From positions 4,288,001-4,352,000 of the forward strand of contig OY762911.1 of assembly GCA_963666565.1 (NCBI GenBank): 64,000 nucleotides of DNA. Reading direction: 5' to 3'. The translations under genes and the position numbers were made by a program. How positions within the stretch are numbered: the first letter of the stretch is position 1; each line of letters opens with the position of its first letter. Origin of the DNA: Thermoanaerobaculia bacterium (GTDB taxonomy: Bacteria > Acidobacteriota > Thermoanaerobaculia > Multivoradales > Multivoraceae). The notes under the pieces are model-generated. The model had not been told where the DNA came from. It ran no database searches and was given only the letters and a program-made list of their open reading frames with translations. Positions 40,241 through 59,790 of the stretch are shown here, in pieces.

Positions 40241-42094
40241 CTACCGGGCCAGTTCTCTCAACGTGAAGTTCACGGTCAGGGAATGCCGCGGATTCAGGAC
40301 CGTCTCGAACGGCTCGCTGACCTCCCACTTGGCCAGGCTGAAGCGCCGGGCCGAGATGCGCACCCAACCGGGCGGCACGCCGCGCGCCGAGTAGGCGCCG
40401 TCTTCGCCGACGCTCGCCTGATGCACGAGGCTTCCGTCCGCCGACTCGAAGCGGACGATCGCGCCGTCCGCCGGCTGGCCCGTGGACGCGCTCACCACGC
40501 GGCCGCGGATCACGGTGTCGGCGAGTTCCAGCAAGAGCGGCTCGTCGGCCGGCACGTCGATGCCGTGGAAGAACTGCATCGCCTCGTGGTCCGGCGCGAT
40601 GACATCCACCCGCCAGCCCTCCCGTCCCGGCAGCGCTCCCCGGAACCAGCCGTCGTCGTCGCTGCGGAACGTCAGGTCCGGCGAGGTCTGGCGGCCGCCG
40701 AAGAACACGAGCCCCCGCACCGGCACGTCGTCCAGCATCAGTCGCCCCACAACCGGGATCAGGTCCAGTTCGACGACCGCGACCAGGTCGCCCACGATCT
40801 CCAGGTAGTCCAGGCCGCCGAACCGGCCGCCCGCCTCGTCGGCGATCTCCACACTGAACGCGCCGTTGCCCGGCACGTGAAACCGCACCCGGCCGTTCTC
40901 CACCACCGCCCGCTGCTGGGGGTAGTCCCCGGGCCGGTACTGCCGCCAGAACTCGACCGGGTTCGCCGGCTCGATCTGCTTCAGCCGGGCCACCCACTCG
41001 CTCTCGTAAGGCGGATCGGCGGGGAGCACGGAGACTTCCAGGAGGTGGCTTCGCATGAGCGGGATCCGTTTCCGCGGAAACGTCTCGGCGTCCCTCCGGA
41101 GCGTGTAGGGGCCGGCGCGCGCAGCCACGCGGTCGTCGCAGTCGACCTGGATCCAGTGGTGGCCGGGGCCCAGGCCCGCCGCCTGGAAGAACCCGTCCCG
41201 GTCCACATCCACCGTCGCGGCGACGTCCTCCAGGCCGGTCGTCCAGAACGCCGGATCGGCCTTTGCGATGTGGACCACGCAACGCTCGATCAGCTCCCGG
41301 AAGCCCGGTCCCGGCGCGACGAAGCCGGCGAGACTGGCGCCGGGGACGAGCGTCTGGTCGCCCAGGCGAAGCTGCCGCCGGCCGTGGAGCGGCGTCTGCC
41401 AGCGGTACTCGGGCGAGTGTCCGGGCAGCCAGAACACGAGGTGAACCAGGGCGCCCGGCAGTTCGCAGGACCAGCGGCCGTCGGCCGCCACCGGGCATCG
41501 GACCCTGGCGCCCTTCAGGCGGAAGCGCGGGTCCATCCGTTCCGGATCGACGTCGCCGAGGAGGATCGAGACTTCGGCGGGCGGCCGGCGGGGACCGACC
41601 ACGCGCCCCGACACGGCGACCGCCGGGAAGACCGGCACCTCGTACAGGCGCACGACGTCGCCCGCGGGTTCTTCGGCGCCGGACTCCTCTGCGGCCGCGG
41701 CCCCGGCGCCCGGCGGCGAGTCCGTCTCCGCGTCCGGCGCCAGGCCGGGATCGACGTACACCTCGCGGCCCCAGAAGCCGCTGCCGGCCGCCGGCCGCAC
41801 GTTCCACGGTCCGGGCTCGCGCAGGAACACCTGGAACGGCTGATCGCTGACCACTGGCAGGTCCTGCTCGACGCCCTCGGCGTTCCTTGCCACCAGCGTC
41901 ACGTCGGCAGCGACCGTGCGATACGCCACCGCCTGCAGCACGACGCCGGTCACCTCCTCCGCCGGCGTCCGTCCCGCGGATCCCGCCGGTTCCTGCGCCG
42001 CGGAAGCGGCGGCGCCAAGGACAAGCGCGGCCGCCAGCGGCCCTGCCCTGCCAAGAGGCCCTGCTCTGCCAAGAGATCGCGTCCAGACCCTCAT
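40241..42094 (-). CDS. Secreted protein with carboxypeptidase-regulatory-like beta-sandwich domains
   Basis: Signal peptide ...AASAAQ; repeated xSGRV, D.DG.F and G.Y...GVPPG motifs. Confidence 0.65.
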   Translation of the reverse strand: MRVWTRSLGRAGPLGRAGPLAAALVLGAAASAAQEPAGSAGRTPAEEVTGVVLQAVAYRTVAADVTLVARNAEGVEQDLPVVSDQPFQVFLREPGPWNVRPAAGSGFWGREVYVDPGLAPDAETDSPPGAGAAAAEESGAEEPAGDVVRLYEVPVFPAVAVSGRVVGPRRPPAEVSILLGDVDPERMDPRFRLKGARVRCPVAADGRWSCELPGALVHLVFWLPGHSPEYRWQTPLHGRRQLRLGDQTLVPGASLAGFVAPGPGFRELIERCVVHIAKADPAFWTTGLEDVAATVDVDRDGFFQAAGLGPGHHWIQVDCDDRVAARAGPYTLRRDAETFPRKRIPLMRSHLLEVSVLPADPPYESEWVARLKQIEPANPVEFWRQYRPGDYPQQRAVVENGRVRFHVPGNGAFSVEIADEAGGRFGGLDYLEIVGDLVAVVELDLIPVVGRLMLDDVPVRGLVFFGGRQTSPDLTFRSDDDGWFRGALPGREGWRVDVIAPDHEAMQFFHGIDVPADEPLLLELADTVIRGRVVSASTGQPADGAIVRFESADGSLVHQASVGEDGAYSARGVPPGWVRISARRFSLAKWEVSEPFETVLNPRHSLTVNFTLRELAR

Positions 42095-42196
42095 TCCGCT
42101 CCGTCGCCGCGCCGCGACAGCTTCCCCCATGCCATTGCCAACCCGCGTGGCCGGCCCGCCGATTCCGCCGACCTCGACCGCTTCCGGCTCTCAACT

Positions 42197-45100
42197 CTAC
42201 CGAGGCGGGCCGTCAACGGCCCGGCCTCGCGTGTCGGATGTCGGCCTCCTCGGCCGTTCCTCGCAAGCGGCGATCCGCTTCAGCTCGAGGCGGTCGAACC
42301 AGGCATCGCCCAGGTTCGCGCCGTCGCGGGCCGCGCGGATTCTGATCGCGCCGACCGAGGCGGGGATGCACTTCGTCATGGCCCGGCACTCCCAGGCCCC
42401 GGTCGAGGAGGCCACGAGGTGGGCGTCGTCGAAGTCCGCGTCCCGGCCGGCGCCGTCGTCGAAGTCCACGAAGACGTTGTCGCGGGCGTTTTCCCGGACC
42501 ATGCAGGCCGAGAGTTGGTAGGTGCCGCCTTCGATGGGGATCCAGTCCTCGGTGACCGCCGCGTCGGGCGCTGCGCCAGGCGTTGCGTCGCCGCCGTCGC
42601 CGCCGTCGCCGCCGCCGCGGAGCACCAGGCTCCAGGCGCCGGCGTCGAGGCCCGAGGGCGGCCGGGCGACCGCCGCGTCGCCCCAGGCGGCCGTCCAGCC
42701 GGGCGCCGCGGGAGCCCTGTCCTGCCCGCCGTCGAGTCGGGGCGCGCCGGAGGTCCCGGCCCGCTCGCCCTCGAGTCCGGCTCCGGGCGCGACGTCGTCC
42801 AGGTTCCCGTTCAGCACCGCCGTCTTCGGCCAGCCCGGCGAGAACGGATCGAACCACGGAACCGCCGGCGCCGCAGGCGCGACCGGCGTCAACGCCTTCT
42901 CGACGGCCCACCATTCGACGACCGACGCGACGCCGGATCGCCGCGCGTACACTGCGCCGTAGCCCCGCGCCAGGAAGAACGTGTCGTGGACCTCCGCCCG
43001 CGCCGCGTCCGGCCAGTAGCGGACTTCCAGCACGTCCTCGAAGACGAGGCCGGGGACCGGCGGCACCTCGAACGCCGCCCGGTGCGACAGCGCCTCCATG
43101 CGCATCGTCGCCCACAGGACGCCGTCCTGGTTCCGCCGGCGGTCCGAGAGCAGCCGCCCGGTTGCGGGGCCTTCCACGACATCGCCCACCGCCATGAAGC
43201 GGTTCATCCAGCGGAAGGGACGGTCCAGCGCGACGCTCGGCCGGGCTTCCCCGCCCGCCGAGGCGCCGCCGAACGTACCCCAGTAGTCGAGGCCGCCCTC
43301 GACCTCCTCGAAGATGTCGTAGCGCTCGCCGCCCGGATCGCCCAGCAAGGCCACCTTCCTGCCCCACAGGTCGCCGCGCCAGAAGGAGCGGAGATACGCC
43401 GTGCCCTCGGCCGGCGCCGCGCGCCCGTCCCCGAGGCGGGTCCGCACCTTCAAGGCGCTGCCGTGCGGCAGCAGCCAGTACTCGAACATGTCGACCGCGC
43501 CGGACGGCGACGGCGGCGCAAGGGCCGTCGACGACCAGGCGGACGCTCCCTCCGTCACCGTTGCCGAGAAGGTCAGCGTCGTCTTGCCCCCGTTCCTGCC
43601 CGTCGCGGTGTAGGTGTACGTGGTGGCCTCAAGCGTCGCCGTCGGCGTCCCCGACACCGTCCGCGTCGCCGCCGCGAACGTCACGCCGGCGGGCAGCTCT
43701 GGCGTCAGCGAGTAGGTCACCCTGCCGCCGCCGCCGCTTGCCGCGGGCAGCGTCAGCGAGGCGATCGCCGCGTCCTTCGTCCACGACTGATTCGCGACGG
43801 TCGCGGCGCCGAACGACGGGTCCTCCACCGCGATCGTCGCGCTCGTCGTCGAGTCGCCGAACCAGGAACCGGGATCGCGCACCATCCGCCACGCGAAGAC
43901 GTGGCCGCCCGTAGTCGACGGCGCCGTGATCGAGATCGTGAAGACCGCCTCGCCGTTCGGCGCCACGTCCGACGCCAGGGAGACCCGGTTCGTGCCCCAC
44001 GTCGTGTTGTCGGCGGGACTCTGCGAGCCCAGTTTGTAGCCCAGGGCCGTCGTCCAGGTCGTCGTCCCCGTGTTCCGCATCGTCACCGTCACCGTCGCCG
44101 TGCCGCCGGCCGCCATCTTCGTCGGCACGCCGGTCGCCGACACGAACGCCGCGCTGTCGCCGGCGGCCGCCGCCACCCGGATCCGGAACGTCAGCGTCGC
44201 CTTGTTGCCGGCCCCGTCGGTTGCCGTGTACGTGTACGTCGCCCCCGTCTGCGACGCCGTCGGCGTCCCCGACAACGTCCGCGTCGCCGCGGCGAAAGTC
44301 ACGCCCGCGGGCAGCGCGGGAGACAACGCGTAGGTCAGCGTCGCGTTGCTGCCGCTCGCCGCCGGCAGCGTCAGCGTCGCGATCGCCGTGTCCTTCACCC
44401 ACGCCTGGTCGGCCACCGTCGCGTCGCCGAACGACGGATCTTCCACCGTTATCGTCTTGCTCGTCGTCGAATCGCCGAACCACGTCGCCGCGTCCCGCAC
44501 CATCTGCCACGCGAACGCGTGCGAGCCTGTCGTCGAAGGCGCCGCGATCGCGAACGTGAAGTCCGCCGTCGCGTTCGGCGCCGTGTCCGAAGGCACGGAC
44601 ACCCGGCTCGAAACCCACGTCGTGTTGTCGGCCGGACTCTGCGCCCCCAGCTTGTAGCCGGCGGCCGACGTCCACGTCGTCGTGCCCGTGTTCCGCATCG
44701 TCACCGTCACCGTCGCCGTGCCGCCCGCCGCGATCTTCGACGGCACGCCCGAGTACGACACGAACGCCGCGTTGTCCACCGGCGCCTCCGTCGCCTCGAT
44801 CCGGAACGAGATCGTCGCCTTGTCGCCGTCCGTGTCCGTCGCCGTGTACGTGTACCAGGCCTCCGCCTTCGCCGCCGTCGGCGTACCCGCCAGCGTCCGC
44901 GTCGCCGCCGTGAAGGTCACGCCCGCCGGCGGCGAGGGCGTCAGCGCGTAGGTCAAAGCGCCCGTGCCGCCGCTCGCCGCCGGCAGCGTCAGCGACGCGA
45001 TCGGCGTGCCCTTGATCCAGGCCTGGTCGGCCACCGTCGCGTCGCCGAACGACGGGTCCTCCACCGTGATCGTGTTCAGCGTCGTCTTGGCGCCGAACCA

Positions 45101-48100
45101 GCCCGACGAGCCCTGGATCATCTGCCACCGGAACTTGTAGCTCCCCGTCGTCGTCGGCGCCACGATCGTGAACGTGAAGTCGCCCGTCGCGTTCGGCGCC
45201 ACGTCCGATGCGAGCGATACCCGCTTGAGGCCCCACGTCGTGTTGTTCTCCGGCCGCTGGGAACCCAGCTTGTAGTTCGCGGACGTCCACGTCGTCGTCC
45301 CGGTGTTCTGCATCCGCACCGTCACCGTCGCCTTGCCGCCGGCGACGATCTTCGTCGGCACGCCCGTGTACGACACGAAGGTCGCCCCGTCCGACGCCTT
45401 GCCCGCCACCCGGATGGTGAACGTGAGGGTCGCCGCGTCGCCGTCCGCGTCCGTCGCCTTGTACGTGTACGTCGTCGCGTCCTGCTTGCTCGTCGGCGTC
45501 CCCGACAGCCGCCGCGTCGAGTCGTCGAACGTCACGCCAGCCGGCAGGGTCCCGGTCAGCGAGTAGCTCAGCTTGCCGTTGCCGCCGGTCGCCGCCGGCA
45601 GCGTCACCGTGCCGATGGACACGTTCTTCACCCAGGTCTTGTCCAGGATCGACGACGAGCCGAACGACGGCGTCGTGTCCGCCTCCACCGCGATCGTCTC
45701 GAGCGTCGACTTGGCGCCGAACCAGCCGGCCGCGCCCTTCAGCATCCGCCACCGGAACTTGTAACTCCCCGTCTTCGCCGGCGCGGTGATCGTGAACGTG
45801 AAGTCCGCCGTCGCGTTCGGCGGCGTGGAGGCCGGCAGAGCGACCCGCTTCAGGCCCCAGGTCGTGTTGTCCTCCGGCCGTTGCGAGCCCAACTGGTAGC
45901 CCGCGGCCGACGTCCAGGTGGTCGTGCCGGCGTTCCGCATCCGGACGGTCACCGTCGCCGTCGAACCCGCCGCCATCGTCGAAGGCAAGCCCGTGTAGGA
46001 GACGAACGACGCGCCGTCCGACGCCTTCCCGTCCACCCGGATGGTGAACGTGACCGTCGCCGCGTCGCCGTCCGTGTCCGTCGCCTTGTAGGTGTACGTC
46101 GTCGCGGCCTGCTTCTTCGTCGGCGTCCCCGACAGCGTCCGCGCCGTGGCGTCGAACGTCACGCCCGCGGGCAGGGTCCCGGTCAGCGAGTAGGCGAGCT
46201 TGCCGTTGCCGCCCGTCGCCGCCGGCAGCGTCACCGTGCCGATCGACACGTTCTTCACCCAGGTCCGGTCGAGCGGCGGCGTCCCGAACGACGGCGACGT
46301 GTCCGGCGCCGCCGACACCGCGATCGTCTCGAGCGTCGACTTGGCGCCGAACCAGCCGGCCGCGCCCTTCAGCATCCGCCACCGGAACTTGTAGCTCCCC
46401 GTCTTCGCCGGCGCCGTAATGCTGAACGAGAAGTCCGCCGTCGCGTTCGGCGGCGTGGAAGCCGGCAGAGCGACCCGCTTCAGGCCCCAGGTCGTGTTGT
46501 CGGCGGGCCGCTGCGAGCCCAACTGGTAGGCCGCGGCCGAGGTCCAGGTCGTCGTCCCCGCGTTCCGCATCCGGACGGTTACCGTCGCGGTCGAACCGGC
46601 CGTCATCGTCGAGGGCACGCCCGTGTAGGACACGAACGCCGCGCCGTCCGACGCCTTGCCGTCCACCCGGATGGTGAACGTGAGCGTCGCCGACTTGGCG
46701 GCGGTGTCCGTCGCCTTGTAGGTGTACGTGACCGCGGACTGCTTCTTCGTCGGCGTGCCCGACAGCGTCCGCGCCGAGGCGTCGAACGTCACGCCCGCGG
46801 GCAGGGTCCCGGTCAGGGAGTAGCTCAACGAGCCGGTTCCGCCGATCGCCTTCGGCAGCGTCACCGTCCCGATCGACACGTTCTTCACCCACGTCCGGTC
46901 GCGGATCGTCTCGCTGAAGGTCGGAATGGCCGGCGCCGCCGACACCGCGATCGCGAACGTGAGCGTCGCCGTGTCGCCGTCCGTGTCGGTCGCCGTGTAC
47001 GTGTACGTCGTCGCGGCCAGCGTCGCGGTCGGCGTGCCCGACAGCGTCCGCGACGAAGGAGAAGAGTCGAACGACAGGCCCGCGGGCAGCGCCGGCGACA
47101 GCGAGTAGGCCAGGGTCCCGTCGCCGCCGGTCGCCGCCGGCAGCACCGTAGAGGTCATCGCCCGGTTCTGCGTCAGCGTCATGTCGGGAATCGTCTTGCC
47201 GCCGAACGAGGGCTGCTTGTCCGCGCTGTCGTCGTCGGTCACCGTCACGGCTACCGACGCCCTCACGCTGGCGTAGTCGCCGCCGGCAGCGGTCAGGTCG
47301 ACCGTCGTGCTCTCGTTCGCAGCGTCCGCGTCCTGCTCGCCCGTCACCGTCACGGTCTGGGTCGTGTTGTAGTTCGTCGTCGTGAACGTCAGGCTCGACG
47401 GACTCGCCGTCGCGGCTGTCGTGTCCCCGCTCGACACTGTCACGGTCACGTTCGCCGTCGGCTGCGTCGCCAGCTTCGCCGTGAACGTGCCGCTGCCGCC
47501 CTCGGCCACCGTCAGGCTCGTCGGGCTCGCGACCACGGCCTTCGTGTCGTCGTCCGTCACCGTCGCGCCCACCGAAGCGGACACGTTGGCGTAATCGCCG
47601 CCGGCAGCGGTCAGGCCGACGGTCACGCTCTCGTCGGCCGCGTCGGCGTCCTGCTTGCCCGTCACCGTCACCGTCTGCGCCGTCGCGTAGTTCGTCGTCG
47701 TGAAGGTCAGGCTCGCCGGACTCGCCGTCGCGGCGCCCGGGTCCCCGCTCGACACCGACACCGTCACGTTCGCCGTCGGCTGCGTCGCCAGCTTCGCCGT
47801 GAACGTGCCGCTGCCGCCCTCGGCGACCGTCAGACTCGTCGGGCTCACCGTCAGAGCCGCGGTCTCGTCGTCGTCCACCGTCACGGCCACCGACGCGGAT
47901 ACGTTGGCGTAATCGCCGCCGGCAGCGGTCAGGCCGACGGTCACGCTCTCGTCGGACGCGTCGGCGTCCTGCTTGCCCGTCACCGTCACCGTCTGCGCTG
48001 TGGTGTAGTTCGTCGTCGTGAAGGTCAGGGTCGCCGGACTCGCCGTCGCGGCGCCCGGGTCCCCGCTCGACACCGACACCGTCACGTCGGCCGTCGGCTG

Positions 48101-50812: not shown

Positions 50813-50851
50813 TTCAGTCGCCCTCCCTTCGCCGTCGGGTCGAACCTCCGC

Positions 50852-53800
50852 TCAACGCGCCGCCGCGCCGGCGACGCAGGCCAACGCTTCGGTGTCGACG
50901 ATCGCCGGGGCCGGCTGCCCGGCGGTCGTGCCGTACCTCTTCGTCGCCCCGGTCACCGAGTCCTCCACCAGCAGGTCGAGGCCCATGTCGGTCGCCGAGG
51001 CGGCGAACACCCAGTGGTGTCCGTTGATCGAGCAGCCGTCCAGGACCTTCACCAGCACCTCCCAGTTCTCCGGGTCGAGGAACCAGAAGAGGCCCGCCCT
51101 TTCCGTGCCCGCCCGCGCGACGAGGCCCTCGTGCCGCTCGCCGCCCAACGTGGACGCCTCGATTCCCACCGAGAACCGGCCGCTCCCCAGACACAGCGTC
51201 GTCGGGCCGGCCTCGCACCGGCCCGCCGCCCTATCCGCCGCCGCGAGCCCGGGCGCGTAAGCTCTCGCTCCGGTCGCGAACCCGCCGAACGCCCCGTCGC
51301 CGGCGCGCTCCGAGGAAGCCGCGCCGGCCGTGGCCGCGTCGCCGCAGGCCAGGGGGAACGCCTCCGTGTCCACGATCGCCGACGCCGGCCGGTCCCGATC
51401 GTTCCAGTACGACCGCGAATCGCCGGTGACCGTGTCCTTCACCCGTATCCAGTAACCCAGATCGGTCGTCGAAGCGCCAAGTACCCACATCCGCCCGTTG
51501 ATCGCGCAGCCGTCCAGCACCTTGATCAGCACCTCCCAGTTCTCCGGATCGAAGAAGTGGAAGAGCCCCGAGTCGTTCGTGCCCGCGGGAACGACCCGGC
51601 CGCGGCCTCCTCCCCCCTGGCTGAACCAAGTGTCCCATTTCATCTCGACCTTGAAGCGCGAGTCCCGCAGGCACAGCGTCTCCGCGTCCGGCGTACAGGT
51701 ACCACGCGGCGCGGCCCCGATCACGGCGGGGAGGGAGAAGCCCCGCTCGTTGTACGCGTACACCCTCGTCGCGAACAGCGGGTCGTACCCCCACCCGAAC
51801 GGGACGAAGGCCGTCTCCGTGTTCGGAGGAACGCGCGCCACCCGGGAAACACCCGACTGAACCTCGAAGCCCAGTTCGTCGTCCGAGTTGTCCTTCCAGC
51901 TCAGGCGGGCCGTTTCTCCCTCGACGACCACGGAAAGGTCCGAGGGCGCCCGAGGCCCCGCGCCGCGAGCCCCCAGAGTCAGATGCGTCCGGGAGGGCAG
52001 GCTACCCCCATGGCTGTTGGTGGCCGCGACTTCAAACGTGTAGCGGCCGCCTCGGGCAAGCCCCTCGATGTCCACCGGGCTCCGGTCGGTCGGGGGCGAG
52101 TGGCGCCAGCCCTCGAGGAGGGCACTGACCCAGTAACTGTCGCTCCCGGGCTTTCCCGTCCAGCTCACCCGCACCGTCGTCGGCCCGATGGCCGTGGCCG
52201 TGAGATCGGCGACGGGACCTGGAGCGAGCGGATGGCGTCGCCAGCGGAAGGCCGCCGACTCGCCGGCCTCCGAAGCCGCAGTCTCATGGACCGCGAACAC
52301 CCGCACTCGGTACTCGCGGTCCCGGGGCTGTACCCTCGGCTCCCGGAAAGACTCGCTCGTCTCGTTTGGCAATGGCCATCTTCGCCCGACGGGCTCGCCG
52401 TCCTCCAGAAGTTGCACCTCGAACCCGATCTCGTTGTCCGAGTTGTCCGTCCAACGCACATGCACATGTGACGAGGATGCCTCCGCGACTACGTCAGACG
52501 GCGCCCTGAGCGGCTCGCCGGGGATAGCCAAGTAGGCGTAACCGCTCCGCAGGGACCGCTCCTCCCCTTTCGTCGCCAGCACGTGGCACTTGTAGGTCGT
52601 GCCCGGTTCATGGCGTTCCAGAGGAATCGTCGCCCGAGTACTGCCTTCGACCCGCCGAACGGTGTCTCTGCCATGGAAGTCGTAGCACCCCACCTCGTAC
52701 CCGTCCGCGTCCGGCGCGTTGCCCTGCCAGGAAAGGCGCAGGAACTCGCCGTCCCGCCGTATCCGAAGGTCGCTCGGCGGCGCCGGCACTCCCTCCATGG
52801 AACGCAGGTGGTCGCTGTAGCGCGCGCCGATGTGGACCGTTTCCCGCAACAGCCGCTCGTTGTCCCGCACGCCCGCGATGCCGACCGCGGCGCCCCAGGG
52901 CCGGAACCGCGGCGTGGAGAAGAACGGCTCGATCTGGCCCGGGTAGCTCATCGCCGTGCCGATGCTCGGCATCGCGTCGTCGTTCCAGTGGCCGAAGGCG
53001 TAGGGCCTGAACGCTGTCTCCGGCGCCTTGGTCGCGGCCGGGTCGTGGTTGGCGCCCAGATTGTGGCCAATCTCGTGAACGAAGGTGACGACGTAGTCGC
53101 AGTAGCCGGCGTTCGACGTCCAGGCGTAGGCGGCGTTGGCAAAGGTCCGTGCCGTGTCGCCCCTCTGCAGCGGGAAGGCTTGGCCGCAAGGGCCGGTAAG
53201 GGCCGGGCCTTCGCCCGTGAAGAGATGCACCAGGTCGGCCCGGTGTTCATGGCGCAGGCGCCACTGGTCTCCGTCCTCCCAGAGGAGCATCAGCAGGGGG
53301 CGCTTCGGAAAGCGCAGACGTTCGTCTCTCATGGCCCGGTCCAGAACGGCGGACGCCTGGAAGGCGTGGACGATGTGCGGCTCCACCGGGAGATCGTTGT
53401 TGCGAAACACCATCTTCAGGTAGTCGCCCGCGTGGCGGATCGCAGCCTCTGGTCCGCCGATGCCCGCCCAGTTCTCCGCCGCCGTCGCCGTGTACGCCAC
53501 CAGGATGTCCAGCCGGTCGTGGCTCTGCGGACTGCTCACCGGCTGGGGTAAATCGGCAGAGTGGGCCCCTGTTCGGGTATGGGCCGCAGCGTCGTGGGGG
53601 TGCTCCTCGATTGTCTCCACCTCGCAGAAGGGCACCCCCTCCGGCCGCGGACCGCCGACCGGCGCCATCCCGCCCCGGCCGTCCGACGCCGCATGGATCC
53701 GGTAGGCGCCTCCGCCCGCGGCCCCGAACCGGCCCACCAGGCGGCCGCCCTCCACCGTCAGCACCACCGTGTCGTACCCCGCGTCGGGGTGGCCGCCCGA

Positions 53801-54115
53801 CCACATCAGGTCGCCGCCGCCGCGGTCCTCGAAGACGCTCCGCTCCGCCGAGAGGACGCTGCCGTCCGGCGTCGGCACCTCCAGCCAGGGCGGCGCGCTC
53901 CGCAGCAGGCCCAAGTCCACCTGCACCGCCGTCGGAACCGGCCCGATCAACGGGCCTAGATCGTCCGTTGAGGACGCGTCCGCAACGCCCGGGACGAGCG
54001 TCAGCAACCGTTGCGCCTGAGCCGCGGAAGCCGGCGCAAGGAGAAGCGCCGCCGGCAAGCCGCACGCCAGCGCTGCGCGGCGGCATCCAGCGAGCAGTGA
54101 AGCCAACGGAATCAT
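50852..54115 (-). CDS. Secreted reprolysin-like (M12) zinc metalloprotease with Fn3-like domains and two Cys-bounded 'VKVLDGC' domains
   Basis: Signal peptide; prodomain with PFCEV; HEIGHNLGANH; Met-turn TAMSY; APSDL...W.DNSD.E.GFEV Fn3-like repeats; start may be 54148. Confidence 0.88.
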   Translation of the reverse strand: MIPLASLLAGCRRAALACGLPAALLLAPASAAQAQRLLTLVPGVADASSTDDLGPLIGPVPTAVQVDLGLLRSAPPWLEVPTPDGSVLSAERSVFEDRGGGDLMWSGGHPDAGYDTVVLTVEGGRLVGRFGAAGGGAYRIHAASDGRGGMAPVGGPRPEGVPFCEVETIEEHPHDAAAHTRTGAHSADLPQPVSSPQSHDRLDILVAYTATAAENWAGIGGPEAAIRHAGDYLKMVFRNNDLPVEPHIVHAFQASAVLDRAMRDERLRFPKRPLLMLLWEDGDQWRLRHEHRADLVHLFTGEGPALTGPCGQAFPLQRGDTARTFANAAYAWTSNAGYCDYVVTFVHEIGHNLGANHDPAATKAPETAFRPYAFGHWNDDAMPSIGTAMSYPGQIEPFFSTPRFRPWGAAVGIAGVRDNERLLRETVHIGARYSDHLRSMEGVPAPPSDLRIRRDGEFLRLSWQGNAPDADGYEVGCYDFHGRDTVRRVEGSTRATIPLERHEPGTTYKCHVLATKGEERSLRSGYAYLAIPGEPLRAPSDVVAEASSSHVHVRWTDNSDNEIGFEVQLLEDGEPVGRRWPLPNETSESFREPRVQPRDREYRVRVFAVHETAASEAGESAAFRWRRHPLAPGPVADLTATAIGPTTVRVSWTGKPGSDSYWVSALLEGWRHSPPTDRSPVDIEGLARGGRYTFEVAATNSHGGSLPSRTHLTLGARGAGPRAPSDLSVVVEGETARLSWKDNSDDELGFEVQSGVSRVARVPPNTETAFVPFGWGYDPLFATRVYAYNERGFSLPAVIGAAPRGTCTPDAETLCLRDSRFKVEMKWDTWFSQGGGGRGRVVPAGTNDSGLFHFFDPENWEVLIKVLDGCAINGRMWVLGASTTDLGYWIRVKDTVTGDSRSYWNDRDRPASAIVDTEAFPLACGDAATAGAASSERAGDGAFGGFATGARAYAPGLAAADRAAGRCEAGPTTLCLGSGRFSVGIEASTLGGERHEGLVARAGTERAGLFWFLDPENWEVLVKVLDGCSINGHHWVFAASATDMGLDLLVEDSVTGATKRYGTTAGQPAPAIVDTEALACVAGAAAR

Positions 54116-54232
54116 CGGGAGACTGCGATCAGCAGACCGTTCAGGCAATGGGAACCAGAATCATACCCATTGATGCGACCAGACCTCGAAATGTCGGGAC
54201 CGCAGGCCGCCGCCGTCGTGACGAACCTCCGC

Positions 54233-55039
54233 TCAACGCGCCCCCGCGCCGCCAACACAGGCCAGCGCCTCCGTGTCGACGATCGCCGGCGACGGCTGGC
54301 CTGGCTCGTTCCCGTAGGACCGCGACTCGCCCGTCACCGTGTCGGTCACCGCGATCCGGTAACCGAGGTCCGTCGTCGAAGCGCCCAGCACCCAGACCCG
54401 CCCGTTGATCGAGCAGCCGTCCAGCACCTTGACCAGCACTTCCCAGTTCTCCGGGTCGAAGAACCGGAACAGGCCCGAGTCGTTCGTGCCCGCGTGAACG
54501 ACCCGCCCGGCGCCCGACTCTCCGGCCGAGGTCCGCCACTCCATCTTCACCTCGTAGCGGGAGTCCCGCAGGCAAACCGTCTCCGCATCCGCCCGACAGG
54601 AACCGGCAGGCGCGGCCGCCTCCACCAGCACCGTCCGCGTCGCCGAGTCCGAACTCGAGCCGTCGCTTACCGTCAGCGTGACGGTGTAGAACCCCGGCGT
54701 GGACCACGTGTGCATTGGCGACGCCGCGTCCGACGAGGCGCCGTCGCCGAAACTCCAGCGCCGCTCGGTCACGCCGCCGCCGCTCGTGTCCACGAGCCTC
54801 ACGGGCGTCCCCGTCAGCGCCCGGCAGAGGTCCTCGCTGCAACGGATGTGGAGTCCGAAGGATGCCTTCACCGGCCCGCGCGGAGTTTCCGCAGCGCGGC
54901 GAGTGCTGTATCCGCGCTCGTTGTAGGCGAAGACCCGGATGGTCTTTGCGGAGGGGGTCAGGTCGACGAATGGCCTGAAGACGACTGTTTCCGTATCCGC
55001 GGGGACCGTGAGCTCCCTGTCCCAGTTTCGGGTTCCGTG
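54233..55039 (-). pseudogene. 3' fragment of a related surface protein (Fn3 end, PKD domain, 'VKVLDGC' domain), cut by IS21
   Basis: RVFAYNERG; WSFGDG.....P.HTWSTPGFYTVTLTVSD; FFDPENWEVLVKVLDGC; 5' end abuts the IS end. Confidence 0.82.
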
Positions 55040-55162
55040 TGTTGGGGGCAACTGTAAATCTCCCATTCGTGGCAACCGAAAACCGCACAGTAGGCGGTTT
55101 GCGGTAGCCGCTCCGTCGATCGATGCTGTCGGCTTCGCCAACGGCAATGGAGCGACGGATGG

Positions 55163-56188
55163 ATGTACGGATGGGAGATCAGGATGCAGTTGAGGCACTA
55201 CCTGGAGCGAGGCGTCTCGAAGGCGGAGTTGGCCAGGCGGTTCGGCGTCGGTCGGCGGACGATCCACGCGTGGATCGAGTCGGGCCAGTTGGACCGCGAT
55301 CTGTCGGCGGGCGAGGCGCGATACTCGCCGCGGCCGCGGGTCGCTCACAAGCTGGACCCGTACAAGGAGTTGATCGAGGTTCGGCTCGGCGAGTTCCCCA
55401 AGCTGTCGGCGAAGCGCCTGTTCGATGAGGTGCGCGCGGCTGGCTACGACGGCGGCTACAGCCGCGTGAGGGACTACGTGCGGGAGGTGCGGCCGCGGCC
55501 TGCTCAGGAGCCTCCGGTGCGGTTCGAGACGCCGGCGGGCCATCAGGGCCAGGTGGACTTCGGCACGTTCAAGCTGCCTTGGGGACGTCGGCATGCGCTG
55601 CTGGTGGTGCTCGGCTACTCCCGGCTGTTGTGGCTGCGTTTCTACACGCGCCAGACGATGCCGGTCCTCATCGAGGGGCTTGAGAGCGCCTTCGGTCGGT
55701 TCGGCGGCGTGCCGCAGGAGCTCCTCTTCGATCAGATGCGGGCCGTGGTCGTGTCGGACGACCGCTCCTCGGGCGGCGAGTTGGCGTTGAACGCCGAGTT
55801 TCTGCGGTTCGCTGCCCACTGGGGGTTCGTGCCGCGGTCGTGCCGTCCCTACCGGGCGCAGACCAAGGGCAAGGTGGAGCGGCCGATCCGATACGTGCGG
55901 GAGAGTTTCTTCTACGGTCGGCCCTTCACGAATGACGCCGACCTGAATGAGCAGGCCCAGCGCTGGCTGGAGGGCACCGCCAATGTGCGCCGGCACGGCA
56001 CGACGGGCGAGCGCCCGGTGGACCGTTTCGAGCGTGACGAGCGCCAGGCGCTTGGTCCCCTGGCCAGCCAGCCGTACCGGCGCCTGGGCGCTCGGCAGCC
56101 CGAAACGGCGGCCCGGCGCCGCTTCAAGGCGCCGAAGGTACAGGTGCAGCGGCGTCCCTTGCGGGAGTACTCGGAGGCGGTCCGATGA
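55163..56188 (+). CDS. istA: IS21 transposase
   Basis: N-terminal HTH; RFETPAGHQGQVDFG; LGYSR; LFDQM; QTKGKVER. Confidence 0.95.
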   Translation: MYGWEIRMQLRHYLERGVSKAELARRFGVGRRTIHAWIESGQLDRDLSAGEARYSPRPRVAHKLDPYKELIEVRLGEFPKLSAKRLFDEVRAAGYDGGYSRVRDYVREVRPRPAQEPPVRFETPAGHQGQVDFGTFKLPWGRRHALLVVLGYSRLLWLRFYTRQTMPVLIEGLESAFGRFGGVPQELLFDQMRAVVVSDDRSSGGELALNAEFLRFAAHWGFVPRSCRPYRAQTKGKVERPIRYVRESFFYGRPFTNDADLNEQAQRWLEGTANVRRHGTTGERPVDRFERDERQALGPLASQPYRRLGARQPETAARRRFKAPKVQVQRRPLREYSEAVR

Positions 56189-56982
56189 AGGCTCCGGCTG
56201 GCGACCGGCGGGCTCGGCTGCGGGCGATGCTGGCGGACCTGAAAACGCCCGGGGCGCTGGAAGCCGTGGACGGCATCCTTCACCAGGCCGACAGCGGCGC
56301 GGTGACCGCTTCCGAAGCGATCGAGGATCTGCTTTCGGCTCAGATCGTGCTGCGCAACAACCGCCGGCTGCAGGCGGCGATGCGCTCGTCGCGCCTGCCG
56401 GCGGTCAAGACGCTCGACCAGTTCGACTTCAGCTTCCAGCCCAGCATCAAGCGGGAGCAGATCGAGAGCCTCCACGAGCTGGGCTTCCTCAAGCGCGCCG
56501 AGAATGTGATTCTCCTGGGCCCGCCCGGGGTGGGCAAGACGCATCTCGCGATCAGTCTGGCGATCACGGCCGCCGAGTCGGGCCGCAAGGTCTACTACGG
56601 CACGCTGGCGGCCCTGATCGAGTCGCTGACCGAGGCGAAGGCCGCGGGAAACCTGTCGCGTCGGCTCCGGGTCCTCACCCATCCCGCCTTGCTGGTCGTG
56701 GACGAGATCGGCTACCTGCCGATCAGCCAGGACGGCGCAGTGCTCTTCTTCCAGTTGATCAACGCCCGGCACGAGCGGGCCTCCACGGTGCTCACCTCCA
56801 ACAAGGGCTTCGAGGAGTGGGGCGGCGTGCTCGGCGACGAGATCATGGCCGCGGCGCTCATCGACCGCCTCCTGCACCACTGCCACATCGTCAATATCCG
56901 CGGCAACAGTTACCGGATGAGGGCCCACCAGGACCTCCTGCGCCCTGCCCGCGAAGAGCGTAGCCAGAAAGCCGGCTCATGA
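56185..56982 (+). CDS. istB: IS21 helper ATPase
   Basis: FDFSFQP; GPPGVGKTHLA; VDEIGY; TSNK; DRLLHH...G.SYR. Confidence 0.95.
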   Translation: MKAPAGDRRARLRAMLADLKTPGALEAVDGILHQADSGAVTASEAIEDLLSAQIVLRNNRRLQAAMRSSRLPAVKTLDQFDFSFQPSIKREQIESLHELGFLKRAENVILLGPPGVGKTHLAISLAITAAESGRKVYYGTLAALIESLTEAKAAGNLSRRLRVLTHPALLVVDEIGYLPISQDGAVLFFQLINARHERASTVLTSNKGFEEWGGVLGDEIMAAALIDRLLHHCHIVNIRGNSYRMRAHQDLLRPAREERSQKAGS

Positions 56983-57164
56983 TCAGCCGCCAACCCCCCA
57001 GCCTCGCCGCGCGTCCGGTGTCGGCCTCCGGTCGCTCCGCTCCCTCCGGCCGACACCGGAGTCCTGCGGCGCTTCTCCGGACGCCTGCCCCGACCTCTAC
57101 CGCCTCTCCTCGAGTGTGCAGTTTTCAGTTGCCACAAGTGTGCAGTTTTCGGTTGCCATTGACA

Positions 57165-59682
57165 CGCCGGCGCCGTACTCCCGGGCGGCGTTTCGCCACC
57201 TCATCTTCACCTCGAAGCGCGAGTCCCGAAGACAGAGCGTCTCCGCGTCCGGCAGGCAGGAACCTGTGGGCGGCCTGACCTCGGTCACGGCGGGCAGGGA
57301 AAAGCCCTGCTCGTTGTACGCGAATACCCTCGTCGCGTGTAGCGGGTTGTTCACGTAGGCGGATGGGACGAGGGCCGTCGTCGTGTCCGGCGGGACCAGT
57401 GCCAACCTGTGGCTCGCCCACTGAACTTCGAAACCCCACTCGTCGTGGGAGTTGTCCTTCCAGCCCAGGCGCGCCGTTTCTCCCTCGACGACCACGGAAA
57501 GGTCCGAGGGCGCCTCCGGTCCCGCCCCGCGAGCCCCCAGAGTCAAATGCGCCCAGGATGGCGGGCTGTAGCCATACTCGTTGCCGGGCCTGACTTCGAA
57601 CGTGTAGCGCCCGCCCCGGGCGAGGCCCTCGATGTCCACCGACTCGGTACGTACGCTCCCGATCAGGTGATGCCAGCCCTCAAGACGAGCCGTGACCAGG
57701 TACTTGTCGCTCCCGCGACTTCCCCTCCAACTGACCCTAGCCGTCGTCGGCCCGATGGCCGTAGCGGTGAGATCCGTGAGAGATTCCGGGGCCAGCGGAT
57801 GTCTGCGCCAACGAAAGGTCTCCGACTCGGCGCTCTCGGAACGGGCGGCGGGGTTTCTTGCGAACACCTTCACCCGGTAGTCGCGGTCCCGAGGCTGTAC
57901 CTTCGAAGTCAGGAAGTCCCCCTCCGCCCCCTCCGACACCCACTTGCGCGCGATCGGCTCGTTGCCCTCCAGCAGCAACATCTCGAACCCGAACTCGTTG
58001 TCCGAATTGTCCGCCCAACGGACCGTCAGGACCGAGTCGGACGGAACCACGACCACGTCCGACGGCGCCGCGACAGGCTCGCCGGGGATGCTCAGGAAGG
58101 CGTAGCCGCTGCGCAGGGACCGCTCTTCGCCCTTCGTCGCCACCACCCAGCACTGGTACCATGTGCCCGGTTCAGGGCGTTCCAGCGGAATCGTTGCCTC
58201 GCTGCGACCCTCGACCCGAAGGGTGGGGTCGTGACCGCCCCAACACCTGACCTCGTATCCGTCAGCTTCCGGCGCGTTGCCCTTCCAGGAGAGGCGCAGG
58301 AACTCGCCTTCGCGCCGTATCCGAAGGTCGCTCGGCGGCGCCGGCACTCCCTCCAGCGAACGCAAGTAGTCGCTGTAGCGCGCGCCGACGTGGACCGTTT
58401 TCTGCAACAGCCGCTCGTTGTCCCGCGCTCCCGCGATGCCGACGACGGCGCCCCAGGGCCTGATCCGCGGCGTGGAGAAGAACGGCTCGATCTGGCCCAT
58501 GTTGCTCACGGCCGTCCCGATGCTCGGCATCACGTCCACGTCCCCGTGACCGAAGCCGTACGGCCTGAACGCGTTCTCCGGGAAACCTGTGCTGCCCGGA
58601 TCGTGGTTGGCCCCCAGATTGTGGCCAATCTCGTGAACGAAGGTGACCACGTAGTCGCAGTAGCCGGCGTTGCTCGTCCAGGCGAAGGCGTCCGAGTGGA
58701 AATTCTTGGGCGTGGGCCCGTCATAGAAGCCCCTGATCAAGAGAAAGGCCCGGCCGCACGGACCGACGAGGGCCGGGCCTTCGCCCGTGAATAGATGCAC
58801 CAGGTCGGCCCGGTGTTCATGGCGCAGGCGCAACACGTCTCCATCGTCACGGAGCCCGTCCAACAGTCCTCGCCACCGGGAGCGTTGATCTCGCGCCGCC
58901 CGGTCGAGAACGGCGGACGTCTGAAAGGCGTGGACGATGTGCGGCTCCACCGGTAGCTCGTTGTTCCGAAACACCATCTTCAGGTAGTCGCCCGCGTGGC
59001 GGATCGCAGCCTCGGGGCCGCCGATCGCCGCCCAGTTCTTCGCCGCCGTCGCCGTGTACGCCACCAGGATGTCCAGCCGGTCGTGGCTCTGCGGACTGCT
59101 CACCGGCTGGAGAAGATCGGCGCCGTGGGACCCCGCCCGGGCATGGGCCGCAGCGTCGCGGGCGGCCTCCGGGACCGTCTCCACCTCGCAGAAAGGCACG
59201 CCCTCCGGCCGCGAACCGCCGACCGGCGCCATGCCGCCCCGGCCATCGGCCGCCGCGTGGATCTGGTACGCCCCGCCGCCCGCGGCGCCGAACCGGCCCA
59301 CCAGACGGCCGCCCTCCACCGTCAGCACCACCGTGTCGTACCCCGCGTCCGGGTGGCCGCCGGACCACATCAGGTCGCCGCCGCCGCGGTCCTCGAACAC
59401 GCTCCGCTCCGCCGAGAGGACGCTGCCGTCCGGCGTCGGCACCTCCAGCCAGAGCGGCGCGCTGCGCAGCAAGTCCAGGTCCACTTCCACCGCCGTCGGA
59501 ACCGGCCCGATCGACGGGCCGGGACCGTCCGCCGAGGAAGCCTCCGCAACGCCCGGAACGAGCGTCAGCAACCGTTGCGCCTGAGCCGCCGGAGCCCACC
59601 CAAGGAGAAACGCCGCCAGCAAGGCGCACCGCAACACTGCCTCCAGAAATCCGAAAAACAGCGAAATGGCTTGAAATCTCAA
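57165..59682 (-). pseudogene. M12 metalloprotease paralogue, C-terminally truncated by IS21
   Basis: Near-identical prodomain to 50852-54115; HEIGHNLGANH; stops after ETLCLRDSRFEVKMRW...GAG where the IS end begins; start uncertain. Confidence 0.85.
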
Positions 59683-59790
59683 GAAGTCGTTAGAGTAGTA
59701 CGGTGCCTTGGCCGCGTAATCTCCAAACCCCCGGAACCTCGGGCCGCTGAGCCGGTCCCGCGAATAGCGGTTCCGTCAACGAGCCGCCGC

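Follow-up and report, generated by a model that had tools for sequence, protein, structure and literature searches.

Metzincin-type proteases are encoded next to a giant fibrillar adhesin-like protein in a multi-copy cassette of a Thermoanaerobaculia genome

Two described kinds of system come close to the locus presented here. In the LapA/LapG/LapD system of Pseudomonas, a type I secretion system (T1SS) exports the RTX protein LapA, and LapG is a periplasmic cysteine protease. In the cellulosome, a scaffoldin with a carbohydrate-binding module (CBM) and cohesins is combined with dockerin-tagged enzymes. Next to these stand the fibrillar adhesin-like proteins, about half of which have no known anchor (Monzon et al. 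2021, PMC8286594). Here, we describe a protease-adhesin gene cassette in a 64,000-nucleotide stretch (the window; G000:C1:4288001-4352000) of the 4.79-Mb, single-contig genome (G+C ~70%) of an uncultured Thermoanaerobaculia bacterium (Acidobacteriota, Multivoraceae), where a gene for a metzincin-type protease lies directly upstream of one for a 2871-amino-acid (aa) fibrillar adhesin-like protein. Four copies of the cassette are present in this genome, and the pair of genes recurs in relatives.

Compared with these described systems, the locus shows likenesses as well as clear differences. As in LapA/LapG/LapD, a giant repeat adhesin has a dedicated protease encoded nearby, but the metzincin protease here is secreted and carries fn3 and ProtCT domains, ProtCT being a ~115-aa beta domain with conserved cysteines, and the adhesin has a Sec-type N-terminus. 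The original prediction, made from the DNA letters, had invoked LapA/LapG as a parallel; this analogy is not supported, since the protease is a signal-peptide metzincin and the adhesin is without RTX or T1SS features. The cellulosome offers no more than an analogy, in that a giant repeat protein with a predicted CBM-like end is found together with many secreted enzymes sharing a small terminal domain, whereas no cohesin or dockerin families were matched here and ProtCT also occurs in N-terminal positions. As the fibrillar adhesin-like class is described in PMC8286594, the architecture of the giant protein appears to fit it: a long single polypeptide, a tandem Ig-like stalk, and a binding-type domain at one end, here too with no recognisable anchor. 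The stalk-type tandem repeats of that class are present, although He_PIG is not named in the paper's main text. Relative to that description, the stalk here is built from NBR1/FW and He_PIG together with another Ig-like repeat that has no name; the tip is an unnamed two-part module, in which a beta domain precedes a CBM-like jelly roll, and this module is also found as a free secreted protein; and the adhesin gene is coupled to a protease gene.

The main parts of the cassette in the window are the following:

~42250-59761, minus strand: accessory insertion, consisting of one protease/adhesin cassette array and an IS21 insertion sequence (IS), delimited by nucleotide similarity limits and by synteny in relatives
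50852-54115, minus strand: intact metzincin protease (1087 aa when read from its ATG, at 54115), with Reprolysin_3/4/5 and fn3 matches and a zinc motif
50813-50851, minus strand: protease-adhesin spacer of 39 nucleotides (nt), with the Shine-Dalgarno-like GAAGGGAGGG read directly
42197-50812, minus strand: 2871-aa fibrillar adhesin-like protein, recognized by Pfam He_PIG and N_BRCA1_IG and by self-built hidden Markov models (HMMs), with paralogues 86-88% identical
42197-43555, minus strand: terminal module of the adhesin ("AdhC", residues 2420-2871), characterized by an AlphaFold2 (AF2) model and structure matches

Paralogues were sought by tblastn of the window proteins against the organism's own genome, and three further copies of the cassette were recovered:

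G000:C1:3064656-3079780: two proteases, then an adhesin (3071243-3079780) that is 86% identical and full length
G000:C1:3152072-3175520: roughly six protease genes or gene pieces ahead of an adhesin (3167346-3175520) with 88% identity over residues 571-2871
G000:C1:1741040-1749907: two proteases ahead of an adhesin-like remnant that is short and broken

In the remnant of the last copy (G000:C1:1741040-1743357), the N-terminus is 56% and the C-terminal part 87% identical, and the sequence runs over two frames with a stop codon. All three further copies are flanked by unrelated housekeeping genes, namely those for RF3, an acyl-CoA dehydrogenase, Nramp, ferritin, an MFS transporter, and Glu/Gln-tRNA synthetases, and at the cassette flanks examined no further genes, exporters included, were found to travel with the pair.

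We also analyzed the arrangement in other genomes. The last 452 residues of the adhesin were present in 15 of the 41 other genomes of the genus, on open reading frames (ORFs) of ~1200-3000 aa and with up to seven matches per genome. From public contigs, 24 adhesin loci were fetched, all belonging to Acidobacteriota/Thermoanaerobaculia or to "Candidatus Multivorans/Multivoraceae" metagenome-assembled genomes; five of them could not be assessed, either for a contig end or for an adhesin longer than the flank. In 17 of the 19 assessable loci, the adhesin was immediately preceded by a protease gene on its own strand, with gaps that were mostly below ~100 bp as judged from match ends. When the best protease matches in nine further relatives were taken as the starting point, an adhesin start followed directly in six, while among the other three, one was followed by a second protease, one came without a flank, and one had no adhesin within 570 bp. 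Since the arrangement recurs in paralogous and orthologous loci alike, it goes beyond chance. If the pairing is functional, it would represent a lineage-specific and rapidly turning-over surface toolkit, kept at one to seven copies per genome and accompanied by IS hits and pseudogenes. No account of the cassette was found among the papers listed on Acidobacteriota/Thermoanaerobaculia, sponge symbionts included, and a search under the family name Multivoraceae returned no literature.

A stretch of 39 nt separates the protease stop codon (50852-50854) from the adhesin ATG (50812), and GAAGGGAGGG is located ~8 nt before that ATG, in agreement with the ~40-bp gap and GGAGG-like site that had been predicted. 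No terminator-like site was detected in the 50813-50851 spacer, though the scan overall found no more sites than expected by chance, and the promoter scan yielded 0 sites. The protease and adhesin genes are probably co-transcribed. Because the pair has been kept across considerable divergence with a short spacer, we consider it quite likely that the two genes form a co-expressed unit.

Several observations weigh against a close partnership of this kind. Two assessable adhesin loci (L053 and L056) have no upstream protease, and a related protease with the same architecture (~50% identity) stands alone at all five loci examined. The argument for co-transcription is one of spacing only, and synteny is the sole support for a putative functional coupling. 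Across 16 cassettes, the identity of the protease catalytic domain and that of the adhesin N-terminus were correlated with a Spearman rho of 0.38 over 120 non-independent pairs, and within genomes the correlation was not significant (rho 0.24, 15 pairs). One pair of cassettes has adhesin ends that are 99% identical but proteases that are just 82% identical; together with the weak correlation, this points to recombination between copies and to two genes that are not tightly co-evolving.

Adjacency could persist merely through block duplication, with the segment copied as a unit and a general secreted protease and a general adhesin each acting alone. Consistent with this explanation, the DNA of the cassette copies is 84-91% identical and breaks off sharply at shared boundaries, the paired genes co-vary weakly, and many kinds of ProtCT-bearing enzymes are encoded elsewhere in the genome without adhesins. 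However, the genes stay adjacent even where the encoded proteins share just 50-70% identity with those of the window, and in spite of varying protease number and adhesin length; moreover, the spacers remain short, and all close protease paralogues of this genome lie within cassettes. We regard block duplication by itself as an unlikely explanation and retain the reading of a co-expressed pair.

The intact protease is encoded by an ORF at 50852-54148 on the minus strand, which gives 1098 aa from a TTG and 1087 aa from the ATG at 54115, the latter being the gene caller's P0117. Its domain order is signal peptide, N-domain, a catalytic domain with the motif HEIGHNLGANHD, an fn3 region, and two ~115-aa ProtCT domains. 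In Pfam, it scored 38.9 bits for Reprolysin_3 (cut-off 22.4), 34.0 for Reprolysin_5 (cut-off 27), and 32.0 for Reprolysin_4 (cut-off 22); a truncated protease paralogue in the same array was likewise above the Reprolysin_3/4/5 cut-offs, and fn3 was matched on both proteases. The zinc motif HEIGHNLGANHD is present in both, at nt 53045-53077 in the intact and at nt 58603-58635 in the truncated gene, and candidate Met-turn methionines occur ~30-35 residues past the zinc site (GTAMSYPG in the intact and AVSNMG in the truncated protease). With an HExxHxxGxxHD zinc site and profiles above cut-offs, both enzymes resemble the reprolysin-like, M12B-type proteases (PF13582, PF13583, and PF13688). In contrast, their similarity to solved metzincins is weak and confined to the zinc-site region (best E 0.0015, MMP-12), and the combination of fn3 with ProtCT is specific to this lineage. 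Against the equivalog model for Mep72 of Pseudomonas aeruginosa (NF052434), the two proteases score 38.8 and 47.4 bits, far below its cut-off of 645.

The ProtCT domain has the conserved core FFxxxNxE(V/L)LVKVLDGC. Its copies in the intact protease lie at ~51314-51724 and 50855-51256, and a further copy, in a protease fragment of the array, lies at 54236-54640. A profile search of six-frame ORFs detected the domain on 45 ORFs of the genome (63 copies), and in 38 of the 45 the last copy was within 14 residues of the ORF end. Among 20 carriers analyzed with Pfam, the partner domains included M60 enhancin-like, M12-like, S8 subtilase (with P-domain and PKD), and M9 collagenase, as well as alkaline phosphatase, EEP nuclease, PQQ and GSDH dehydrogenases, and an LRR protein, while several carriers had no Pfam match. 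Most of the ProtCT carriers examined are secreted enzymes. At least 1638 database proteins match ProtCT; where names are given, they reflect the other domains of these proteins, and many of the matches carry FG-GAP/VCBS families. In an even sample of the phylum, ProtCT was found in 14 of 151 genomes (the unpublished G080 included), with large expansions in a few.

No Pfam family matched ProtCT significantly in any of 26 members, no NCBIfam model matched the ProtCT part of the protease, and no sequence relative was found in the PDB (best E 0.1). The ProtCT model is a confident one (predicted local distance difference test [pLDDT] 90.4) but had no clear structural match: Foldseek returned none at E<=0.001, and with VIA the top match reached a Z of 5.7. 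We considered whether ProtCT is a cleaved C-terminal sorting signal. This idea was dropped: among the best 120 database matches, the last ProtCT copy was C-terminal in 83 but away from the C-terminus in 37, and all 20 listed of those 37 carry a tandem pair near the N-terminus. Since tandem copies are common and N-terminal positions occur, we read ProtCT as a binding or tethering module instead. A still unnamed domain on thousands of secreted proteins gains a testable genomic context.

The 2871-aa adhesin-like protein consists of 16.4% Thr and 14.4% Ala. Pfam matched He_PIG in 8 stretches and N_BRCA1_IG in 6, and a repeat map obtained with self-built HMMs gave six NBR1/FW, ten He_PIG, and seven ~105-aa Ig-like repeats. 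From its N-terminus, the protein has a signal-peptide-like start, an NBR1/FW domain (39-135), He_PIG, three ~105-aa Ig-like repeats, and two He_PIG; these are followed by four Ig-like repeats, two He_PIG, and five NBR1-He_PIG units up to residue 2420, and then by a 450-aa module. No cell-anchor family was matched on the protein in Pfam or NCBIfam, an absence of known anchors that is compatible with attachment. Three other giant repeat-protein regions of the genome (G000:C1:2301445-2308914, 2288923-2295243, and 4228795-4247095) share the He_PIG or the ~105-aa Ig-like repeat at 32-47% identity and are without the terminal module.

When the terminal module was searched with HMMER against the full library, 71 proteins were matched at E<=0.001. 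Free-standing homologues are 408-435 aa long, have signal-like starts, and are 26-38% identical over the whole module; these proteins (P0012-P0031) come from other metagenomic bacteria and are called "hypothetical protein" or left nameless in their sources. An AF2 model of the module, built on the homologue alignment, had a pLDDT of 81 and a predicted template modeling score (pTM) of 0.76. In this model, the N-part (residues ~20-225) is all-beta, and residues ~230-430 match CBM16 (2zew) with a Z of 15.5 and a root-mean-square deviation (rmsd) of 2.3 A over 140 residues; further matches were a porphyran-binding CBM (Z 14.3), CBM4, CBM61, and CBM22. The adhesin tip is thus predicted to have a CBM-like jelly-roll fold. 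Its likeness to the CBM4/9/16/22/61 jelly rolls extends over the last ~200 residues of the adhesin as modeled (Z 11-15.5, rmsd 2.3-3.4 A), and homologues of the module give weak CBM_4_9 matches in Pfam. Unlike known CBMs, the module sits on a nonenzymatic fibre and stays below Pfam thresholds: no Pfam family was above threshold on the terminal module of the window's protein, and no Pfam adhesive family was matched there, the predicted fold being CBM-like. This unnamed module, too, gains a genomic context in which it can be tested.

In line with the original prediction, which saw no T1SS, T5SS, or sortase signature, no RTX, T1SS, autotransporter, or sortase family was matched on the adhesin. 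T1SS genes were not found flanking any of the four cassettes, and the TolC-like proteins encoded in the genome adjoin none of them. A single secretin and a single T2SSE-type ATPase are encoded in the genome, both in the same cluster, which resembles a type II secretion system (T2SS; G000:C1:397001-414000, L118) and comprises genes for an ECF sigma factor, GspF, GspE with MshEN, three further genes, the secretin, and two N-methyl pseudopilin-like proteins. A gene for a ProtCT-bearing 729-aa protein adjoins this cluster on the opposite strand. No match to T2SSG (PF08334) was found in the genome, although the secretin cluster encodes N_methyl pseudopilin-like proteins, and the T9SS families TIGR04183 (Por_Secre_tail) and TIGR04189 (SprA) gave no genome match, nor any in the control genomes. 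Sec export followed by a T2SS-like step would be the most economical route.

We propose that both proteins leave the cytoplasm via Sec and would pass the outer membrane by way of the only T2SS-like apparatus in the genome. Outside the cell, the Thr/Ala-rich Ig-repeat stalk would present a carbohydrate-binding tip, with which the fibre would attach to a matrix or surface that contains polysaccharide, and the co-expressed protease, held nearby by its ProtCT binding modules, would digest matrix protein or trim the fibre. Of these two activities, matrix digestion by the tethered protease seems the most likely mechanism, held with lower confidence than co-expression itself, and fibre processing by the protease would be its main rival. 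Two cautions count against this proposal: as no anchor was found, "adhesin" is a reading of the architecture, and a predicted CBM-like fold is no proof of sugar binding. Taking these together with the points raised above, we judge the chance that window 42250-59761 is a multi-copy accessory cassette of metzincin(s) and a fibrillar adhesin working as proposed to be slightly better than even.

Fibre processing could go as far as a release switch, with the adhesin as the protease's main substrate, trimmed or released in a LapG-LapA-like manner by unrelated parts. The tight, repeated adjacency of the genes with a short spacer, and the signal-peptide-like N-termini that would bring both products into the same exported compartment, are what such a switch would lead one to expect. 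However, searches for a LapG-type (C93) protease, LapD, and T1SS or RTX features found none of them. Cassettes hold anything from one to several proteases, with pieces decaying while the adhesin is kept; the pair does not co-vary tightly; and related proteases stand alone elsewhere. We consider a release switch improbable and continue to favor matrix digestion by a tethered protease.

It was also considered whether the giant protein is a scaffold, on which NBR1/FW and He_PIG would dock ProtCT enzymes while the CBM-like tip fixes a cellulosome-like, protein-degrading assembly. The eukaryotic FW domain, as reported in PMC9233695, recognises a protein partner, including its N-terminal di-glycine, so by analogy a protein-docking role for the bacterial FW copies is conceivable. 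A complex prediction for adhesin residues 38-266 (NBR1 plus He_PIG) with ProtCT gave a score of 0.00, which is evidence neither way. If true, the scaffold reading would mean a cellulosome-like surface machine in a Gram-negative lineage of Acidobacteriota, yet we think it very unlikely.

Downstream of the adhesin lies the gene that had been predicted to be a third partner of the pair:

40241-42130, minus strand: 629-aa exported CarboxypepD_reg-like beta-sandwich protein, assigned by Pfam PF13620; core gene outside the cassette

CarboxypepD_reg (PF13620) was matched by Pfam only at residues 541-624 of this protein, and its look-alikes in the atlas searched are multi-CarboxypepD_reg proteins. This genome has a single copy of the gene, and homologues with 46-82% identity were found in 38 of the 41 other genomes of the genus. 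When relatives' loci were compared with the window proteins, the gene was adjacent to the methionine aminopeptidase gene map in 20 of 20, and the CoA-transferase gene came next in order in 19 of 20; in none of the 20 did an adhesin or protease lie between map and the 629-aa gene. The gap between these two genes was at most ~260 bp in 14 of the loci and ~1.3 kb in six. The longer spacer (L026, L027, L028, L033, L039, and L041) shows that this junction is variable in other genomes too. No homologue of the 629-aa protein was found beside the other three cassettes of the genome. At the DNA level, similarity between the cassette and its paralogues ends at window 42246-42251, ~50 bp before the adhesin stop, and at 59761, so that the last ~17 adhesin codons are local sequence beyond the cassette boundary and are absent from the aligned paralogue. 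A GC-rich hairpin (GAGGCCGGGCCG / CGGCCCGCCTC) at 42202-42229 overlaps the last adhesin codons just past this boundary and may represent either a terminator that lacks a T-run or what is left of the insertion junction.

Because the 629-aa gene is adjacent to map in all 20 relatives and has no copy beside the other cassettes, it is a single-copy core gene outside the module, an unrelated neighbor. The segment boundaries and the adjacency of map and the 629-aa gene in relatives together define an accessory insertion of ~17.5 kb, which sits between these two core genes. Of the predicted 19.5-kb island, therefore, the protease and adhesin part stands and the 629-aa part does not, leaving a module of ~17.5 kb with two gene types; likewise, of the synteny that was to be looked for across relatives, the linkage of protease and adhesin was found and that of the carboxypeptidase-regulatory gene was not. 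The first reading is thereby corrected, as one of three supposed partners merely adjoins the cassette. That the proteases, the adhesin, and the 629-aa protein act as a single module is extremely unlikely, since the co-orientation of the adhesin and 629-aa genes, 66 nt apart here, is outweighed by the place of the latter as a core gene by map in relatives without a cassette there, by its missing paralogue beside the other cassettes, and by the end of cassette similarity before the adhesin stop.

Upstream of the intact protease, the array shows clear signs of decay, with the following features:

57159-59682 (ORF 57097-59682), minus strand: truncated metzincin protease paralogue, with Reprolysin_3/4/5 and fn3 matches
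55044-57158, plus strand: IS21-family element, with istA at 55163-56188 and istB at 56185-56982 (NF033546, IstB_IS21)
54233-~55043, minus strand: protease 3' fragment of a third gene, with a PKD domain and 93% identity to a paralogue end

The IS21 element was identified by NF033546 (279.5 bits; cut-off 160), by IstB_IS21 (PF01695; 268 bits), and by an rve/IS21 Pfam match. It has imperfect terminal inverted repeats of 61 nt (55047-55107 and 57097-57157) and a repeated TGTGCAGTTTTCGGTTGCCA at its right end, and it is the sole copy in the genome by tblastn. In the truncated protease, the IS interrupts the first ProtCT domain, such that the last ~20 codons of the ORF are IS-derived, with the tail MATENCTLVATENCTLEERR coming from the right end of the element. 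The 3' fragment holds the end of fn3, PKD, and one ProtCT, and shares 93% identity with the end of the protease that directly precedes the adhesin in another cassette (G000:C1:3166414-3167211). That this fragment is the missing end of the truncated protease was excluded, as the two flanks derive from different protease genes. No target-site duplication was found at the IS21 element. Given its dissimilar flanks, each from another protease gene, insertion of the IS together with adjacent deletion or recombination appears to have removed most of a third protease gene. Contigs from four runs bridge both IS junctions; these runs belong to one study, from which the assembly itself may stem, and therefore do not count as independent support. 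In another cassette, a 592-aa ORF with no Pfam match interrupts a protease gene at G000:C1:3152982-3154757 (L069:8982-10757); this ORF has six genomic copies that are 98-100% identical.

With regard to the layout of the window, the minus strand holds every host gene of 40241-59682 according to the ORF calls, which bears out the predicted co-orientation, and the predicted gene order of protease, IS, related fragment, protease, 2871-aa adhesin, and 629-aa protein corresponds to ORFs at the coordinates given above. Signal peptides had been assigned to the three intact genes and the truncated protease. All four N-termini indeed have 12-aa hydrophobic windows (Kyte-Doolittle 2.1-2.45) followed by small-residue sites of the A-x-A type, and were graded "signal-peptide-like" by this simple hydrophobicity check. 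On one flank, the region adjoins housekeeping genes for a CoA-transferase, CtaA, and CtaB, and on the other flank map is accompanied by genes for a 3-keto-disaccharide hydrolase-like protein and a TonB-dependent receptor.

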